Positions 1 to 8,100 of a stretch of DNA of 64,000 nt are shown piece after piece. Location of the stretch: NCBI GenBank assembly GCA_965217775.1, contig CBDCJH010000002.1, forward strand, positions 2,240,001-2,304,000, given 5' to 3'. Source of the DNA: Acidobacteriota bacterium (GTDB lineage Bacteria > Acidobacteriota > UBA6911 > RPQK01 > JAJDTT01). Numbering within the stretch: position 1 is the first letter of the stretch; each line of letters opens with the position of its first letter. The translations under genes were made by a program, and so were the position numbers. The notes below the pieces were generated by a model. That model saw nothing but the letters and a program-made list of their open reading frames with translations, was not told where the DNA came from and did no database searches.

Positions 1-2265
1 CCAGGCGGATACGGCGACTCCCCGGCTGGAGATGGTGGCGATGGCGTCCCGGAAAGAGAGCGGCGTCGGAAACATGTAGTGGGACCCCCGCCCGTCCCCC
101 TGAGTCATGTAGAAATGGTCCCGCATGAAGAGATTGAGCCCCTCGGCCAGCGGCTCCACCGACAGCAGCACGGGATCATCCTTGCCCAGATACTCCCCCC
201 CCGAAATGACAGCCAGCTTTTCGGTGGAAGCCGACAGCAGGACCTCGTCCAGACATTGGCGAGGCCGCGACGGATCGAATTCCCCGTTCCGACTCCACAC
301 CCGTTTGACGTTGAACTTCTCGACGGCCCCCAGCAGCGTCTGGCAATGCCCCGACTCGGTTTCCAGGTCCAGGAAGATCCGGCGATGGTGCTCCACGTCC
401 CAGACCTCCAGAACGGCCCCCACGCCACCGATGGAGTCGAGGTGCCGTTGCAGTGAACCGCTGGTCCGGGCGTGATTCAGGCTCCACCAGACGGGCAGGT
501 TGAAGGCCGAGGGTCCGGCCTTGTCGATGGACAGAAGACCGACCCGCTGCGTGCGGTTGAGGGGGAGCTCGGCGAAGCCGGGTCCCTGCCCCGATACGTT
601 GCCGGAAAAGACGGGTTCGGGCTCGCCGGCCTCGACCAACCCGGCCTTCCAGTCCCGGTAGGATTTCTCGAGGACCCCAATCCGGGACCGCTCGACCTCG
701 GGCAGGTGATCGGCCAACAATTCCAGAAACCGATCGGTGAGGTGAGCCAGCTCCTCCGTGGCACGGCCGGCAGAGGCGTCGCCCACCAGATCCTGGCCCA
801 GACCGTACCACTTGTAGCCCAGCGTGCTGGCGACCCAGACCTGGCGAAAGAAGGTTCGATAGGCAAAGAGGTGGACCGCATTGTCGTCGGCGCCGCGGAA
901 ATGGGTCATGAGGAGGTGCTCGTCATCTCCCACTTCGATGATCTCGGAGGTCGAGGAGATGAGACCCAGCTCCGTCGCTTCCTGGAGACTCGCCTTGGCG
1001 ACGAACCGGAAATGGTTCGGCGGCGTCGTGTGTCCCACCTTGCCTCCACCGTCGGCCTTGATGTCCGAGATGGTGAAACGCGCCCGCTGGTTGGCGCCCG
1101 CAATCAGGGAATCCTGGTCGGGTATATCTTCTAGTCGACCTGCGAGTCGACCGGCCAGTACCGCGGCCCTGGATTCCGACGCTTGGGGATTCAGATAGGG
1201 CTCGAACTCGCCGTGTCCGGCCATCTGCCGGATCAGTTCGGCGGCGTCCCGTTGCAGACAGCGGGTCTCGGGACGATTCTGGTCGAAAATATCCACGACG
1301 TCGGTGTCCGAGGGGATGCGGCCTCGATCGAAAGACTGGTAGGCGTAGGCCACGATCCGGGCGGCTCCCTCGCCGGAACGGAGGGGACGGCTTCCGGGAA
1401 AGTCCACCGGTACCAGCCCGACCCGGTACTCTCCGGCACGCCCTCCCGGTCCGAAATGAAACTCTCCGGCGGCCTGGGTGAATTCGCCGATGGCGGGAAG
1501 CCCCGACTGGGAGCGTCCGATCAGGATGGGATTGAAGTTTCCTCCCACCAGAGCGGCCGGCTCATCCCGCAGATCGCCCTCGGCGAACCTGCCCCGAACC
1601 GCGTAGACCTGACTCAGACGCCACTGCTCAGCATCGGCGATGAGAGCCACCAGCTCGTTCAGTTGGCCCGGTCCGAACTCGTAGGTCCGGACCCGATCCC
1701 GGCCTGCGGCCAGATCTTCGATCGATTCGACCACGCCGAGGTAGTCGTTGGCCTCGATCCTCCGTCCGGAGCCCTTATCCGGGTTGAAGAAAAGATTGAA
1801 GAGAGACCGGTTGAAGAAACCCCACGCGCCGTCCAGGGCTTTGGCCACGAAGATGGGTTCGGCCCCTCGCTCGGTATAGGGAAAGTTCAGGAGGCGGACA
1901 CCCAGAGCCTCCCGCTGCGCGTCCCCGGAAAGTGAGAAGACTTCCTCGGCCTCGGGTCCGGTCAGACCGGCCGCCAGCGCCTGTTCCAGGGCTTTGAGTC
2001 CACCCTGCAGTCCAATCCCGGCCGAAACCTCTACCGCAGCCTCATTGGAAAAGTCTCCATTGAGGCTGGAGAAATGGATGTGAACGTCCCCGCCGAAGCC
2101 TCGGACCCAGGACCCGCGAAGACCGGATCGGAGGACCGAGGCGGCCACTTCATCTCTGACGGCCTGCACGATGGCGGCCGGAGTCTCCGCCGCGGTCCAG
2201 CGGCCCAGATCTACGGAAACGATGGTGACATTGGATTGTTCGGAGACGGAATTCCCCGTTTTCAT
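1..2265 (-). CDS. Tandem two-domain fructose-1,6-bisphosphate aldolase/phosphatase (class V FBPase-like), 3' end runs off the window
   Basis: Not in the ORF track because it has no stop in the window. Manual translation from ATG 2265 gives 755 open codons. The second half has TISDIKAD..GH, VGDD.HLLMTH, YGLGQDL, FSGNVSGQGPG, DKAGPSAFNLP, STEKL..YLGKDDPV, RGSH. The first half has ERGAEPIF, GFFN..LFNLFFNP, RSQSGLPAIGE, HGEFEP. Confidence 0.88.
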   Translation of the reverse strand, partial: MKTGNSVSEQSNVTIVSVDLGRWTAAETPAAIVQAVRDEVAASVLRSGLRGSWVRGFGGDVHIHFSSLNGDFSNEAAVEVSAGIGLQGGLKALEQALAAGLTGPEAEEVFSLSGDAQREALGVRLLNFPYTERGAEPIFVAKALDGAWGFFNRSLFNLFFNPDKGSGRRIEANDYLGVVESIEDLAAGRDRVRTYEFGPGQLNELVALIADAEQWRLSQVYAVRGRFAEGDLRDEPAALVGGNFNPILIGRSQSGLPAIGEFTQAAGEFHFGPGGRAGEYRVGLVPVDFPGSRPLRSGEGAARIVAYAYQSFDRGRIPSDTDVVDIFDQNRPETRCLQRDAAELIRQMAGHGEFEPYLNPQASESRAAVLAGRLAGRLEDIPDQDSLIAGANQRARFTISDIKADGGGKVGHTTPPNHFRFVAKASLQEATELGLISSTSEIIEVGDDEHLLMTHFRGADDNAVHLFAYRTFFRQVWVASTLGYKWYGLGQDLVGDASAGRATEELAHLTDRFLELLADHLPEVERSRIGVLEKSYRDWKAGLVEAGEPEPVFSGNVSGQGPGFAELPLNRTQRVGLLSIDKAGPSAFNLPVWWSLNHARTSGSLQRHLDSIGGVGAVLEVWDVEHHRRIFLDLETESGHCQTLLGAVEKFNVKRVWSRNGEFDPSRPRQCLDEVLLSASTEKLAVISGGEYLGKDDPVLLSVEPLAEGLNLFMRDHFYMTQGDGRGSHYMFPTPLSFRDAIATISSRGVAVSAW

Positions 2266-2290
2266 TTTGCTTATGACTCCCAGGCACCAG

Positions 2291-2354
2291 GAGCCTGCGC
2301 GGCAGAAATTGATCTACTGCTTTCTCGCTACGATCATTTCTACAGCGCAGACTC
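2291..2354. mobile_element. Short, internally deleted copy of a MITE-like inverted-repeat element
   Basis: GAGCCTGCGCGGCAGAAATTGATC...GATCATTTCTACAGCGCAGACTC. Both ends match the ends of the element at 9140-9298. Confidence 0.75.
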
Positions 2355-2684
2355 CTGGAAAAAACGATTCAACCGTACCGGCGACGGAATCTTCAGGACC
2401 GGTATCACAGCCGTCGATCAACCAACTCTCACTCGGACGGCGTTATTGTACCTTTCTCCCCCGAAAAAAACGTCGTCCGCCGATGCTCACAGCCCCACAT
2501 CGCCGACTCCCGAAGACGGGACCGGAACAGAGTCTCGGTGAGTCTGCGGATCATCAGGTCCGATGATGCGGTCTGGTACCGGAGATTGGCGATAGTTGAA
2601 CTCTCGCAGACGCTCGCCAACAAGGAGCGATAGGGGACAGTGGAACGTCGCCACCCGTCAGGAGGCGGGGACATTGCAAGGCGG

Positions 2685-4208
2685 TTATGCTCTCGACCGG
2701 CGAAGTTCCCGGATGCCCTCGGAAAGAATGCGCAGGAAGCTGGATCGGTTCTGCCAGAGCAACAGGATCCAATGCCGCTTCTTCATCTGGGGAAAGTAGA
2801 TGCCCCGGAACGCCAGCCGCGTGAAGAACATCAAGGTTCGTTCGTGGAAGGGACGCCCCTCGATTTTCTTCAATGCCTGGGCCGTGGTCTGGGGTGAATA
2901 AGACCGTCTCCAGGCTTCGTGCACTTCGGCTTCGGCCGCCTTGACGCTGATGTTGTTGGGAGTGAAGGCCATGCGGAAAGGCCTGAAATCGAGCCAGTGT
3001 TTGGGACGGGTCAGCCGCTTCTGCGCCAACAGACGATCATACAACGGGGTTGCGGGATACGGCGTCAGCAAGCCGAACACGGGCAGCCCCGGAGGCCAGC
3101 TGTCGATGATGTCCAGGGTCTTCCGGGCCACTCCCGGACGATCACCGTCCATCCCGAAGATGAAGGAGGTGATGGAGTAAATTCCGCGTCTGGCGAGGCG
3201 ATCCAGGACCTCCGCGTATTGCGCCGGTTTGTTGAAGCCCTTGTTCACTCCCTTGAGGTTCTCGTCGTCAATCGACTCGAGACCCATGAAAATCCAGCGA
3301 CCGCCACTCTCCTTGATCAGGTCCACCAGTTCTTCGTCCTTCAGCAGGTTCACGCTGATCTGAGCTACCCAGGGAATTATGGCATCCTGCGCAATGATTT
3401 CCCGAAGCAGCGATTTGGTCCGCCGCTTGTTGAGGGCGAAGTTGTCGTCGATGAAGAAAACGCCGACTCTACTGTCCTCCTTTCGGGCCCGGGCCTTGAG
3501 CCGCAGCATCTCGTCAACGACGCTCTGATCGCTTCGGAAGCGAATGGAGTCGCCGAAGAACCCGGTGACGGTGCAGAAATCGCATCCGTACGGACAGCCC
3601 CGGCCGGACTCGATGGGTACGACGTAAAGGCCCTTCCAAGTGTTTCCCGCTTTCCTCAGCAGGTAGCGGCCCCAGTTGGGGATCTTGGACATGAGGTCGA
3701 ACTGGCTCAAGTCCAGATCTTCCCATGGAATGTGGGGGTAGTCGTCCAGAGAGGGCTTGACCTCATGACCCGTTTCATCGACTGGCTTGTAGACTTCTTG
3801 GAGCTGACCCGCCTCCGCGTCGGCCACGATCTTGGGCCAGACGTCATCCGCTTCCCCCAGCGCCACGGCGTCGGCGTGGCGAGGTTCGCCGCTCCTTCCG
3901 ATCGGCTCGTCGGGAACCTCGGTCACGTGGGGTCCCCCCATCACGACCTTGGCGCCCGCCGACCGAATGGCGTCGGCCATCTGGTACGCGCGCGCCGCCA
4001 TCCGGGTCATGGCCCCGATGCCGGCCAACTGGATATCGTTCTCCTTGACGAATTCCATGATGTCCGCCCGCGTCATGGGCTGGGCGTTCCCGTCGATCAG
4101 GAACACCTTGTGCCCCGGAGGCGTCACCGCCTGCAGCACAAACATCCACAGATGCGGCATGTAGTTTTTCGTCACCTGGTTGTCGGGGTTGTACAGCAAA
4201 ATGTTCAT
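2685..4208 (-). CDS. B12-binding radical SAM protein
   Basis: N-terminal cobalamin-binding-like domain (VVMGGPH); ESGRGCPYGCDFC (CxxxCxxC); FFIDDNF; GLES. Confidence 0.85.
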   Translation of the reverse strand: MNILLYNPDNQVTKNYMPHLWMFVLQAVTPPGHKVFLIDGNAQPMTRADIMEFVKENDIQLAGIGAMTRMAARAYQMADAIRSAGAKVVMGGPHVTEVPDEPIGRSGEPRHADAVALGEADDVWPKIVADAEAGQLQEVYKPVDETGHEVKPSLDDYPHIPWEDLDLSQFDLMSKIPNWGRYLLRKAGNTWKGLYVVPIESGRGCPYGCDFCTVTGFFGDSIRFRSDQSVVDEMLRLKARARKEDSRVGVFFIDDNFALNKRRTKSLLREIIAQDAIIPWVAQISVNLLKDEELVDLIKESGGRWIFMGLESIDDENLKGVNKGFNKPAQYAEVLDRLARRGIYSITSFIFGMDGDRPGVARKTLDIIDSWPPGLPVFGLLTPYPATPLYDRLLAQKRLTRPKHWLDFRPFRMAFTPNNISVKAAEAEVHEAWRRSYSPQTTAQALKKIEGRPFHERTLMFFTRLAFRGIYFPQMKKRHWILLLWQNRSSFLRILSEGIRELRRSRA

Positions 4209-4396
4209 GAAGGCTTCCTCGATCCAGGGTCCGGCAACCGGCCCCTTCCCACCATTAGCAGACTAGAAAACAGCGACACACAGAGGTTCTCAAGGGAGTT
4301 CAAGCACAGAGTTTACTTGAGCCGGTTTTCGATGTACAGGGCTCGACCCAAGGTTGCCTCGAATCCAGCCAGAATGGCAGCAGGCCAAAACCGGGA

Positions 4397-5782
4397 TCAA
4401 GACCCCACCAACGTCGAAGCCAGCCTGCTGACCTTGCGGACTGCCGCTCCGATTTCTTCCATGTCGGAACGCGAACCCAGAAAGACGGATTGCCCCAACC
4501 AGACGGCCTCTTCGCAGAGGCGGTCGTTCTCGGGGCAGCGATTCCGCTCGGGCCACTCCTTGAGGACCCTTTCCGGATAGATTCTCCGAAAGGCACGGGA
4601 CTGGAGGGTCTGCTCCAGGAACGGCTCCCGGTTCAGTGGACGATAGCCGGGCGAGCAGCGAACCCCCTCCGCCCGAAGCGCTTCCAGGAATCGGTTCCTC
4701 GGAAGACCCGCAAAAGCTTCGGGCCGGTAGCGGAACATGTAGAGGTGGTAGGCATTGCCGGTGCAGCCCTCGTATTGCCGCGAGGGCTCGATGCCGGGAA
4801 TCTCGTCGAACAGCCGAGTCAGGTAGGCAGCGTTCTCCCTTCGAAGCCGAGTCTGGGCGTCGAGGCGCTGCAATTGGGCCAGCAGCAGCGCCCCCTGAAA
4901 TTCGGTCATGCGCCGGTTGTCGCCGCTTCGCACGTGCGCCAACGGTGCGGCCGCTCGCTCCAGGTGTCCCTCGGACGTCGCCTGGTAGGCCCGCCCGGCG
5001 TCCTGGAAGCTGGTGCAGATCGCGGCCAGTTCGGGGTCGTCCCCGGAAATCGCTCCCCCTTCTCCGCAATTGAGATTCTTGGAAGCCTGAAAGCTGAAGC
5101 AACCCAGATCTCCCAAGGTTCCTACCGGGCGTCCTCTCCATTCCGCCAGATGAGACTGGCAGGCGTCTTCCACCACCTTCAGCCCCCGGCTCCGGGAGAT
5201 CTTCAGGATCCGGTCCAGGTCACACACGTTGCCCCCCAAATGAACCGGGATGACGGCTCGCGTCCGTTCGGTTGCCGCTTGCTCGATTCGAGACGGATCC
5301 AGTTGGGAGGTTTCACGATCGGAATCCGCAAAAATGGGCAGGGCGTGGCAGAGCAGAACCACGTTGATGGTGGCAACGAAAGTGTATGGGGGGACGATGA
5401 CCTCGTCTCCGGGTCCCACCCCCAAGGCATTCAACGAAGTGTAGAGGGCGCTGGTCCCGCTGGAGGTGGCGACGACGTACCTGGCGCCCAGCCGATCCCT
5501 CCACTCCGCCTCGAAACGCTCGACGTAGCTGCCGCCCCTGCGGTTCCAGCGCCGCGTTTCCAGCACTTCTTTCCAGATCTTCCGGTCGCCGTCTTCGAGG
5601 ATCGGCCACGAGCTGAAGGGCCGCGACCGGACCGGAGTTCCCCCCAGCAGAGCCAGCCGATCGTCTCGAGTCGTTTTCGTCAGCGGCGCCGAGGCCGCCC
5701 GGCCCGTAAGCCGGGCGCCTGCAAACGCGGCCGAGGCGCCAAGAAAGAATCGGCGCGACCAACTTCTGCCTTTCATTTGCAC
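4397..5782 (-). CDS. DegT/DnrJ/EryC1/StrS PLP aminotransferase with Tat-like signal
   Basis: [11 protein letters not shown]; SGTSAL; PPYTFVAT; VVEDACQSH; [15 protein letters not shown]. Confidence 0.88.
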
Positions 5783-5812
5783 CTCCCGTCGATGCCCCCG
5801 CGTTTATCCTCC

Positions 5813-6808
5813 TCAGGAAAAGGCGACGTGGACGCCCAGATCCTGGTCGCGGGCCTGCTGGTAAATGGTGCGAGCGATCGTAGTGTCCTGGATGCCGATC
5901 CCCACTCCGTCATAGAGGGTGATCTGATCCTCGTCCGTCCGGCCCGCGACGTCCCCGTTGATGACCTGGCCCAGCGAGCCGGCATAGCAGTCCTGACCCA
6001 GGATTCCAGCCTCCACCGCCTGACTCACCTCGCCCCGAACCAGAGCATGCTCGACAAAATCGGCGAAAAGCCGGCAGCGGGGCATCAACTCCATTTCACA
6101 TTCGATCTTCTCCCCCAGATCCGAACCCATGCAGCAGAGATGAGTTCCGGGCCGCACCCAATCGGACTGGACGATGGGCCGGCGGCTGGTGGTCGCGGTT
6201 ACGATGACGTCCGCCCCGCGGCACGCCTCCTCGGCCTCCGCCACCTGGATCGGCGCCGGCGCCTCGCCGGCGAGTTCGCGGCTCACCTGCTCGGCCGCTT
6301 CCCGGCGCAGATCGTGGAGGTAGATCCGGCTGAAGGGCCGGACCGAGCTGACCGCCCGCAGGCACTGGCGTCCCAACTGTCCGGCACCGATCACGGTCAG
6401 CGTCGCCGAATCGGAACGGCTCAAGCGTTTCGCGCTCACCGCCGCAGCCGCGCCGGTACGGTACATGGTGGGCAGGGTGCCGTCGCAGATCATCAGGAGC
6501 TCTCCGGTCCGGGGCTCGAATGCCGCGATCCAACTGTTGGTGGTGGGCAGCCCCCACTCCAGGTTGTCGGCCCGTTCCTGGCCGACCTTCATGGAAAGCA
6601 GGTCGGCGGCCTCGGTATAGCCGGTGATGCAGGCCGCCATGCCCCCGCTCGTCCCGGGAATCGACAACGGATAGATGGCTTTGGGAGGGAGGAAATCATT
6701 GCCCCGCTCGAATTCTCCCATGGCGTGCTCGATGGCGGGGATGGCGGCCTTGATGTCGATTCGGGAACCGATGTCCTTGCGGGTCAGAATGATTGTTTCT
6801 CGAGCCAT
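5813..6808 (-). CDS. Ornithine cyclodeaminase/mu-crystallin family protein
   Basis: MYRTGAAAAV; IGAGQLG; ADVIVTAT; DGVGIGIQD. Start moved to ATG 6808 (MARETIIL); the track's N-terminal extension overlaps the upstream gene. Confidence 0.85.
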   Translation of the reverse strand: MARETIILTRKDIGSRIDIKAAIPAIEHAMGEFERGNDFLPPKAIYPLSIPGTSGGMAACITGYTEAADLLSMKVGQERADNLEWGLPTTNSWIAAFEPRTGELLMICDGTLPTMYRTGAAAAVSAKRLSRSDSATLTVIGAGQLGRQCLRAVSSVRPFSRIYLHDLRREAAEQVSRELAGEAPAPIQVAEAEEACRGADVIVTATTSRRPIVQSDWVRPGTHLCCMGSDLGEKIECEMELMPRCRLFADFVEHALVRGEVSQAVEAGILGQDCYAGSLGQVINGDVAGRTDEDQITLYDGVGIGIQDTTIARTIYQQARDQDLGVHVAFS

Positions 6809-7950
6809 GGAATCATCCTTTCGAATGCCTTCTCGATCTGGTCCATGGAGGTCGCGAAGCTGATCCTCAAGGCGTTGTTGCAGGATCGGCCGAAAGCGCC
6901 TCCCGGGATGGTGCAGACACGAGCCTCCTTGAGCATCTGCATGGCCACCTCGAATCCATCGGCTCCCTCGGGAAGGAAGGGCATGATGAAGAATGCACCC
7001 CCCGGCTTGTAGCCGGTCAGAGAGGGCGCCTGATCCACCAGTTCCACGATCCGGTCCCGACGCCTGCGGTATTGCCGGACCATTTCGTCGACGCAACTCT
7101 GGTCCCCTTCCAGGGCCGCCACGACGGCCCACTGTGAAGCGGTGTTCTCGGTGGTGCTGATGAACATGTGGTAGCGCTGAAGGTCCACGATGTTCCGGGC
7201 GCTGGAGATGGCCCATCCCAGACGCAGACCGGCCATGGAGTAGGTCTTGGACACGCTGCTGGCCACGATCACATGATCCAGCGACGGGGAGCAGGTCAGA
7301 GCGCTGGCGTATTCCACCTCGTCGAGGATGAGGCACTCGTAGACCTCGTCGCTGATCAGGGCCAGTCCCCGCTCGACCGCCGCCTCGCTGATGGCGCGGA
7401 TCGTCTCCTCGGGATAGATGGCGCCCGTCGGGTTCCCCGGGGAATTGAGCATGATGGCGCAGGTACGATCATTGATGGCGTCGATCACCGCCTGCGGGTC
7501 CAACTGGTACCCTTCCCCGGCCGTCGTGACCAGGGGCCGGGGGATGGCTCCGGCCATGCGAATGATGTGGACCAGGATGAAGACCGGCTCGACGACGATC
7601 ACCTCCATGCCCGGTTTGACAGCGGCAGTGAGAGCCATGAACATGGCCTGGCAACAGCCGGTGGTGATGAGGACGTTGTCGGGACCGAGATCGATCCCGT
7701 AGCGGAGATTGTACCAGTCGGCGACGGCCTCCCGGAGCCGGGGCAGGCCGGCGTCCAGCTCATACCGCGTCTTGCCCTCTCGGAGCGCCCGGACGTGTGC
7801 CTCGACGATGTGGGAGGGAGTGGGAAAATCGGGCTGGCCGATGGAGAGATGCACCACATCCTCCATGGCGGCGGCGGTGTTGAAGTACTTGCGAATGGGA
7901 GAGAACGGAAGCTCGGCCAGATTCGGATTCCAGTCGATGCCTGTGGTCAT
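6784..7950 (-). CDS. Class I/II PLP-dependent aminotransferase (AspC-like)
   Basis: LSIGQPDFPTP; NSPGNPTG; ISDEVY; SVSKTYSMAGLRLGW. Start at MTTGIDW. Confidence 0.88.
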   Translation of the reverse strand: MTTGIDWNPNLAELPFSPIRKYFNTAAAMEDVVHLSIGQPDFPTPSHIVEAHVRALREGKTRYELDAGLPRLREAVADWYNLRYGIDLGPDNVLITTGCCQAMFMALTAAVKPGMEVIVVEPVFILVHIIRMAGAIPRPLVTTAGEGYQLDPQAVIDAINDRTCAIMLNSPGNPTGAIYPEETIRAISEAAVERGLALISDEVYECLILDEVEYASALTCSPSLDHVIVASSVSKTYSMAGLRLGWAISSARNIVDLQRYHMFISTTENTASQWAVVAALEGDQSCVDEMVRQYRRRRDRIVELVDQAPSLTGYKPGGAFFIMPFLPEGADGFEVAMQMLKEARVCTIPGGAFGRSCNNALRISFATSMDQIEKAFERMIPWLEKQSF

Positions 7951-8100
7951 GAGTCCTCGGCGCTTGCTCCTCGTCCCTGGACTTCGCGTTCCTTTACAGG
8001 AGCGTGAACTGCGGAAATGCTCTATCAACCCGGAAGCGGTGTCAAGAAGCCTCGGGTAGCGTGCTGAAGCCGCTCATCAGACGAGACGCACGGAGAAATC

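Follow-up and report, generated by a model that had tools for sequence, protein, structure and literature searches.

In the genome of a soil-type Acidobacteriota bacterium we analysed a stretch of 64,000 nucleotides (contig CBDCJH010000002.1 of assembly GCA_965217775.1, positions 2,240,001 to 2,304,000; G000:C2:2240001-2304000), which is called the window throughout. Its first 2,265 positions hold, on the minus strand, most of a gene for a protein of 841 amino acids with two consecutive domains of the class V aldolase/phosphatase family for fructose 1,6-bisphosphate (FBP), here FBPA/P (Pfam FBPase_3, PF01950). We conclude with high confidence that this tandem protein is a conserved, pseudo-dimeric FBPA/P with one dead, N-terminal and one live, C-terminal copy. 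It has been suggested that FBPA/P was the ancestral enzyme of gluconeogenesis, and most discussions treat it as a single-domain enzyme found in archaea and in thermophilic or deep-branching bacteria. Its bifunctionality is said to depend on loop remodelling. For the tandem protein we favour, as the rather more probable account, an old duplication and fusion followed by complementary degeneration, which would leave one live and one dead site in a gluconeogenic enzyme converting triose phosphates to fructose 6-phosphate (F6P).

The initial annotation of the window had described an open frame of at least 755 codons on the minus strand, and this frame is real. It starts with an ATG at position 2265, stays open past the first base of the window and reaches a stop codon beyond it, giving the full gene of 841 codons (P0002; L001:1240-3765, minus strand). 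Window positions 1..2265 thus hold codons 1-755, while the last 86 codons and the stop lie past the window's start. The further claim that the gene was hidden had to be dropped. The frame was missing from the list of open reading frames (ORFs) because it is open-ended at the window edge, and the exact 841-residue sequence is recorded at NCBI and ENA. Relatives carry the source names "fructose 1,6-bisphosphatase" or "FBP aldolase/phosphatase". A pseudogene or an assembly artefact was ruled out, as the frame is intact and relatives of 59-95% identity, encoded on complete chromosomes, have the same length. By eye, no hydrophobic signal-like stretch was seen at the N-terminus, and the protein is apparently a free-standing, cytoplasmic form of the tandem module without extra domains.

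The presence of two class V FBPase-like domains, first read from the sequence, was confirmed with the FBPase_3 hidden Markov model, which gave the expected two matches. Bit scores were 233.4 for the whole protein, 57.5 for the N half alone and 174.5 for the C half alone, at a gathering score of 25. Scanned separately, residues 1-400 yielded an E-value of 1.8e-15 (amino acids 31-358 on profile positions 23-338 of 361) and residues 401-841 an E-value of 4.6e-51. The N half (residues 1-392; window positions 1090..2265) has a complete FBPA/P fold without the catalytic residues and represents a pseudo-enzyme copy; the C half (residues 393-841, of which 393-755 lie at window positions 1..1089) is the putative catalytic copy. 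In comparison with the PDB sequences, the N half aligned end-to-end with ST0318 of Sulfurisphaera tokodaii (3r1m; residues 12-364 on 5-347, E 2.7e-15), and the C half aligned in two pieces flanking an insertion (E about 6e-25). A whole-chain AlphaFold2 model reached a mean predicted local distance difference test score (pLDDT) of 84.2 and a predicted template modelling score (pTM) of 0.86; its C half (model residues 396..831) superposed on 1UMG with a Z-score of 37.0 and a root-mean-square deviation of 2.9 over 351 aligned residues. Folded alone, the N half had a pLDDT of 90.7 and a pTM of 0.90 and superposed on 3R1M with a Z-score of 33.1 and a deviation of 3.0 over 327 residues, followed by unrelated structures at a Z-score of about 8. 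A chance likeness was excluded because of the Pfam E-values and the structural match of each half to solved FBPA/P enzymes. With two domains in 841 amino acids, the protein departs from the single-domain architecture of FBPase_3 and fits best as a tandem subfamily of its own within that family.

To compare the motifs of the two halves, alignment columns were counted for 30 single-domain proteins and for the N and C halves of 49 tandem rows. Of these rows 40 come from loci and 9 from protein searches; 4 are duplicates, so that 45 proteins are distinct. The C half carries the first metal-site motif I402-K-A-D405...G411-H412 (window positions 1030..1062), of which K, D, G and H occur in 100% of the C rows. 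By alignment, it also carries G446-D447-D448 (922..930), Y487-G-L-G-Q491-D492 (790..807), the lid loop motif F553-S-G-N556 (598..609; SGN at 554-556), D581-K582 (520..525) and R726-G-S-H729 (79..90), all of these, like the motifs below, on the minus strand. Y692-L-G-K695-D-D697 (175..192) aligns to chain positions 229-234 (Y..GKDD) of 3t2b/3r1m, where the lysine at position 232, the counterpart of K695, is presumably the Schiff-base residue known from the literature. Y-x-G-K-D-D was present in 100% of the C rows; the N half has a gap or G-N-F-N at this place. Likewise kept in 100% of the C rows were K403, D405, H412, D447, D448, Q491, D492, D581, K582, Y692, K695, D696, D697 and S728. In a wider frame, the C halves keep IKADxG..GH, GDD, H455, YGxGQD, FSGN..GxGPGxAE, DK, STEKL, GEYxGKDDPV and RGSH, mostly in 98-100% of rows, a set that is lost from the N halves. 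The metal-site motifs (IKAD..GH, GDD, GQD, DK) and RGSH reached 98-100% of the C rows, while the N halves have lost all of them but D60 and, partly, D19. In the N copy FGGD replaces GDD, and YGxGQD and GKDD are absent.

The N half has kept what the C half lacks. The canonical ER..EP motif is found as E132-R133-G-A-E136-P137 (window positions 1855..1872), with E, R and E in 100% and P in 94% of the N rows, and is deleted in the C halves. The canonical RxQSGLPAxGE is represented by R251-S-Q-S-G-L-P-A-I-G-E261 (1483..1515), with R, Q, G, A and G in 100% of the N rows, and the canonical HGxFxP by H351-G-E-F-E-P-Y357 (1195..1215), which falls inside the predicted interface with the C half described below. 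Altogether E132, R133, E136, R251, Q253, G255, A258 and G260 were conserved in 100% of the N rows; at the same positions the C halves show gaps or different residues. ER..EP, RxQSGLPAxGE and H351-G352 were kept by the N halves alone. In canonical enzymes ER..EP and RxQ(S/H)GLPAxGE share one domain with the catalytic residues; here they occur in the N half only. Every motif named in the initial annotation was found in the copy and at the place given there, and the complementary loss deduced from them holds for all 49 tandem rows (45 proteins), which span more than 10 bacterial phyla and identities as low as about 25%. The same division was visible from the side of the single-domain enzymes: for 25 of 27 archaeal or bacterial proteins (loci L056-L083; exceptions L063 and L083) residues ~1-250 aligned best with the C half and residues ~250-360 best with the N half.

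Each half also has features of its own. In the C half S702-V-E-P-L706 (148..162) stands where single-domain enzymes have R-A/L-Q-S/H-G, in a loop shortened by ~5 residues, and a helical insertion of ~55 residues (497-551; window positions 613..777) splits the lid loop between GQDLVGDA and FSGN. This insertion is conserved in the tandem family, with L517, L521, P522 and W539 invariant. In the N half the loop N161-P-D-K-G-S-G-R-R169 (1759..1785), of low pLDDT in the whole-chain model, replaces canonical DPFNTAGL. It belongs to a near-invariant motif particular to the N halves, FNRxLFNLFFNPDKGSGRRIEGND, in which K164 and R169 were invariant in a 38-row alignment. The initial annotation saw the replacement of RAQSG by SVEPL correctly and understated the extent of the divergence: the changes in the last third of the C half, the ~55-residue insertion and the NPDKGSGRR loop of the N half have to be added.

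The tandem form proved to be widespread. A word-indexed search scored 7999 candidates and yielded 197 proteins of 462-1472 amino acids at E <= 0.001; the 120 matches listed have 805-875 amino acids, 58-93% identity and 95-100% query coverage. Of 596 pattern matches in species-representative genomes, 455 code for a relative; the set retained comprises 79 loci. Metagenome-assembled genomes (MAGs) with the tandem form are labelled as Acidobacteriota, Poribacteria, Gemmataceae and other Planctomycetota, Latescibacterota, Nitrospinota, Anaerolineae, Thermodesulfobacteriota/Deltaproteobacteria, Binatia, Elusimicrobia and Omnitrophota. The carriers are large-genome bacteria of mesophile type. Nothing on a tandem or duplicated FBPase_3 was found in the open literature, subscription papers and supplements being outside this search.

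In a tree of 128 rows and 376 columns (FastTree, LG+gamma) the N halves were monophyletic with a support of 1.0 and the C halves with a support of 0.945. These two separate single clades fit one event of duplication and fusion, the origin first suggested for the protein, and the form may afterwards have spread as a unit. Over 48 relatives, the mean identity to the protein studied here was 52.7% for the N half and 62.2% for the C half. As the N half thus evolves only slightly faster than the C half, it is under purifying selection. No complete N-like protein standing on its own came up among the 101 matches (E <= 0.001) of an exhaustive HMMER search with the N half: short matches were fragments, and those of ~360-390 amino acids were canonical enzymes with 24-29% identity and E-values of 1e-12 to 1e-5. 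A complete stand-alone C-like gene was equally absent from the 13 inspected of 79 matches (242-772 amino acids) of the C-half search. All 13 begin within a domain (from tandem residue 112-422), mostly on short contigs, and are for this reason regarded as truncated calls. One single-domain protein, P0200 (377 amino acids), combines intact catalytic motifs with an FNR...NPDHNSG segment resembling that of the N halves and with RAQKNFPATEE. In the tree it was placed between the N-half and the C-half clades, with a support of 0.76 for grouping with the N halves, and it may resemble the ancestor before the duplication.

Besides the free-standing form, longer proteins with the dead N followed by the live C module were found in Omnitrophota and Planctomycetota (loci L044-L055, proteins P0126-P0145), and their rows fall within the same N and C clades. 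The free-standing 841-residue protein has the same order of copies as these long forms but no added domains. In a 1753-residue frame of a Planctomycetales MAG (L051:1318-6576) triosephosphate isomerase precedes the tandem module, and P0144 (3555 amino acids) combines NTP_transferase, transaldolase and phosphoglucomutase with a tandem FBPase_3. Fusions to triosephosphate isomerase, transaldolase and phosphoglucomutase fit a chemistry leading from triose phosphate to hexose phosphate. P0126 (3495 amino acids) contains 7 FBPase_3 stretches.

For the packing of the halves, residues 1-392 (N half) and 393-841 (C half) were predicted as a two-chain complex, using an alignment of our own. The ipSAE score was 0.66 (0.71, 0.66 and 0.65 in the runs), versus 0.00 for the best of 3 controls, with a contact agreement of at least 78% between runs and a partner pLDDT of at least 86. 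Of 80 solved complexes 58 attained the score mark applied, as did 2 of 110 mismatched pairs, counts that hold only roughly for an own alignment. FBPA/P homo-oligomers are among the solved structures, and the pass of the N/C pair may partly reflect likeness to them. The confident interface joins equivalent elements of the two halves, namely N residues 193-214 with C residues 622-651, 268-271 with 717-720 and 344-392 with 786-833. It contains the retained N-half motif HGEFEPY (350-358) and C-half residues flanking active-site motifs (458-460, 568 and 590-597). According to this prediction, the halves would pack as a pseudo-two-fold dimer with exchanged C-terminal arms, which agrees with the single-chain pseudo-dimer proposed in the initial annotation. 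In the whole-chain model pLDDT fell below 50 at residues 164-168, 254-257, 683-694, 723-729 and 796-806, comprising N-half loops and C-half active-site loops.

Taken together, the following course of events is proposed. An ancient FBPA/P gene would have been duplicated and fused, and its halves would then have degenerated in a complementary manner. The C half would have retained the catalytic core with metal ligands, the Schiff-base loop Y-x-G-K-D-D, phosphate-binding motifs and RGSH; the N half would have lost this core, while strong purifying selection presumably kept in it ER..EP, RxQSGLPAxGE and HGxFxP, which were lost from the C half. Packed through equivalent elements like the two subunits of a symmetric dimer, the halves would form one live and one dead site per chain. 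Aldolase and phosphatase activity is suggested indirectly, as no further FBPase or FBP aldolase family turned up in the genome and as relatives have fusions to triosephosphate isomerase, transaldolase and phosphoglucomutase. The likeliest function would be the gluconeogenic conversion of triose phosphates to F6P, because the genome shows no other recognisable enzyme for it.

The retained N-half motifs would, in the simplest account, act in trans on the C-half site, within the chain or across chains of a higher oligomer, because the loop residues are invariant in a domain without catalytic residues and deleted from the catalytic domain. We give this completion of the live site by N-half loops about an even chance. 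In its widest form, to which we assign a somewhat smaller probability, the proposal describes an obligate asymmetric FBPA/P with a composite live site made of the C-half core and the N-half loops RxQSG, ER..EP and HGxFxP. Such a protein would be the main gluconeogenic FBPA/P of many mesophilic phyla (Acidobacteriota, Poribacteria, Planctomycetota, Binatota, Desulfobacterota-type lineages and Omnitrophota), and the lid-loop insertion and possibly a ligand-binding dead pocket would be part of it. If this composite site exists, the active sites of the canonical homo-oligomer are shared between subunits as well.

The N half could also be only a scaffold, which substitutes for a partner subunit in folding or oligomer assembly and takes no catalytic part, its motifs being elements of interface or stability. 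The predicted complex speaks for such a role in so far as the confident contacts consist mostly of strands, helices and exchanged C-terminal arms (N 367-392 on C 622-647) instead of active-site loops, and as the HGEFEPY stretch lies within the interface. However, the most widely invariant N-half residues (R251, Q253, G255, A258, G260 and E132, R133, E136) belong to loops outside the confident interface, and precisely these have been deleted in the C half, a strange pattern if their role in a symmetric fold were purely structural. We regard a pure scaffold as unlikely. Clearly less probable still is a regulatory pseudo-enzyme domain, in which the degenerate pocket, bordered by the retained loops and by the new basic loop NPDKGSGRR, would bind a phosphorylated metabolite and control the C-half site. 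FBPA/P is usually described as unregulated, and mesophilic bacteria would in this case possess a regulated version. The near-invariant N-half motif, whose K164 and R169 lie in a flexible loop, the conservation of the N half close to that of the C half and the occurrence of the tandem form in large-genome bacteria are compatible with regulation; but the kindred loop NPDHNSG occurs in the catalytically intact single-domain P0200, so that the motif need not mark a new site.

The proposed function was deduced from the enzyme inventory of the genome, which is 97.9% complete with 7.5% contamination. Profile searches of this genome gave no match for class I FBPase (PF00316), GlpX (PF03320), class III FBPase (PF06874), the phosphofructokinase family (PF00365) or class II FBP aldolase (PF01116). 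The search for class I aldolase (PF00274) carries no information, as its control matched nowhere. The sole DeoC-family gene (G000:C2:1776152-1777045; L084:253-1146) encodes an LsrF-type 3-hydroxy-5-phosphonooxypentane-2,4-dione thiolase (478.6 bits, cut-off 297) and was rejected as a DhnA-type FBP aldolase (114 bits versus a cut-off of 430). Judged from these searches, the tandem protein appears to be the cell's only enzyme for the gluconeogenic FBP step, and we consider it, with moderate confidence, probable that it is the gluconeogenic FBP aldolase/phosphatase of the organism. PF00316, PF03320 and PF01116 were also absent from 4 of 5 other tandem-bearing genomes, namely two Acidobacteriota, a Poribacteria chromosome and an 8.7-Mb Gemmataceae chromosome. 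Of 121 genomes sampled from the phylum, 16 have FBPase_3; among these, 3 carry the tandem form (the genome studied here, one of the same genus and one of the same order) and 13 the canonical single-domain form. GlpX occurs in 40 of the sampled genomes; for class I FBPase the number is 38, with the unpublished genome G023 included. The 13 canonical single-domain FBPase_3 genomes matched with E-values of about 1e-150 to 1e-160, and 3 of them also have GlpX. In four metatranscriptomic runs of one study contigs covered most of the gene at 90-99% identity; this points weakly to the gene, or the copy of a close strain, in the RNA libraries and does not prove transcription.

Several observations weigh against the favoured account of a gluconeogenic enzyme with complementary halves. 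First, the QSG loop (251-257), ER..EP (132-137) and the catalytic residues lie outside the confident N/C contacts, where residues not listed are uncertain and not excluded. Second, many canonical positions beyond RAQSG are changed in the last third of the C half, and the lid-loop insertion (497-551), modelled with confidence, is absent from the solved single-domain enzymes. Given the lid insertion and the changed last third, the loop remodelling of the canonical enzyme could differ in the tandem enzyme. Third, the 755-residue window part scored 211.3 bits with the NCBIfam equivalog NF041126 (FBP_aldo_phos), versus a cut-off of 520. Fourth, one tandem-bearing genome, G123, has both a class I FBPase and a class II aldolase. 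Moreover, 35 of the 121 phylum genomes, by a tally of the listed rows, lack FBPase_3, GlpX and class I FBPase; therefore, other, unrecognised routes to F6P exist and must be common in the phylum, and being the only recognisable FBPase is no proof of function. Finally, Coxiella CinF, with 39% identity to ST0318, was reported to lack FBP activity (PMC8740755), and activity can thus not be assumed from homology. The tandem enzyme might instead have moved to another substrate or reaction, for instance a different sugar bisphosphate, phosphatase or aldolase activity alone, or a protein phosphatase activity like that reported for CinF, and gluconeogenesis would then be left to an unrecognised enzyme. 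Such a change would accommodate the lid-loop insertion and diverged last third, the score under the equivalog cut-off, the CinF precedent and the 35 genomes without the three families. It is very improbable in view of the C halves, which are invariant at every residue aligned with the metal, Schiff-base and phosphate motifs of solved enzymes, of the fusions fitting a path from triose phosphate to hexose phosphate, and of the genome itself, which yielded no further FBPase or FBP aldolase family.

The tandem form was the sole recognisable FBPase and FBP aldolase in 5 of the 6 genomes checked. As a gluconeogenic enzyme, it would widen the known range of FBPA/P and fill a gap in gluconeogenesis in metabolic reconstructions of these MAGs, in which annotation pipelines give tandem proteins the plain name "fructose 1,6-bisphosphatase". 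In the tandem form evolution has also run an experiment of its own on which portions of the fold work across subunits, by splitting those acting in cis from those putatively acting in trans.

The surroundings of the gene are not conserved beyond close kin. When 1210 ORFs from 53 tandem loci were clustered, no neighbour conserved over a wider range was found, and the second-largest cluster was an antisense ORF inside the tandem gene itself. From this comparison, there is no conserved operon partner. Upstream of the gene, all on the minus strand, lie genes for a B12-binding radical SAM protein (2685-4208), a DegT/DnrJ-type aminotransferase (4397-5782), an ornithine cyclodeaminase/mu-crystallin family protein (5813-7336) and a class I/II aminotransferase (6784-8028). 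The genes of the region 2685-8028 resemble a small cluster for modifying amino sugars or amino acids, common only to close kin. Downstream of the gene and past the window's start, also on the minus strand, a 221-residue protein with a Trans_reg_C domain (OmpR/PhoB-type DNA-binding) is encoded (L001:726-1391), in which Pfam found no receiver domain.

Between the radical SAM gene and the tandem gene, a dispersed repeat was observed at window positions 2286-2356. It consists of two inverted units of about 35-37 nucleotides, 21-91 nucleotides upstream of the ATG. A blastn-short search with positions 2266-2684 against the same genome gave 118 matches of 97-100% identity scattered over contig C2; each unit accounts for about 60 of them, and up to 111 overlap. 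Metatranscriptome contigs pile up at the repeat, with a word depth of 58-222 versus 2-30 in the flanks and with many loose ends at 2289, 2319/2320 and 2356. Rfam found no match in the upstream intergenic region including the repeat, which looks like a repetitive extragenic palindromic (REP) element or a miniature inverted-repeat transposable element (MITE).

Among known systems, single-domain FBPA/P (class V, PF01950), with ST0318 of Sulfolobus/Sulfurisphaera tokodaii (1UMG, 3R1M) and the enzyme of Thermoproteus neutrophilus (3T2B-3T2G), is the closest family. Both halves of the tandem protein share its fold, and the C half has its motifs IKAD..GH, GDD, YGxGQD, FSGN, DK, Y-x-GKDD and RGSH. While the single-domain enzymes have about 360-400 amino acids, the tandem protein has 841 in two domains with a dead N copy, and its C copy is without ER..EP and RxQSG and carries the ~55-residue lid-loop insertion. 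The canonical homo-oligomer is an octamer. In contrast to the single-domain enzymes, the tandem form occurs in MAGs of mesophile-type, large-genome bacteria of many phyla. CinF of Coxiella burnetii (Cbu0513), a single-domain FBPase_3 homologue of 382 amino acids, is a secreted effector reported to be a protein phosphatase (PMC8740755). Like CinF, the tandem protein has an FBPA/P fold whose function may have left the canonical one; unlike for this single-domain secreted effector, nothing points to a protein substrate. The C1-C2 core of mammalian adenylyl cyclase is a pseudo-dimer with one live and one degenerate composite site. Its fold and chemistry are unrelated to those of FBPA/P, but it would share with the tandem protein the duplication and fusion of a homodimer, complementary loss and a single catalytic site at the interface, the composite nature of this site being a proposed trait in the tandem protein.

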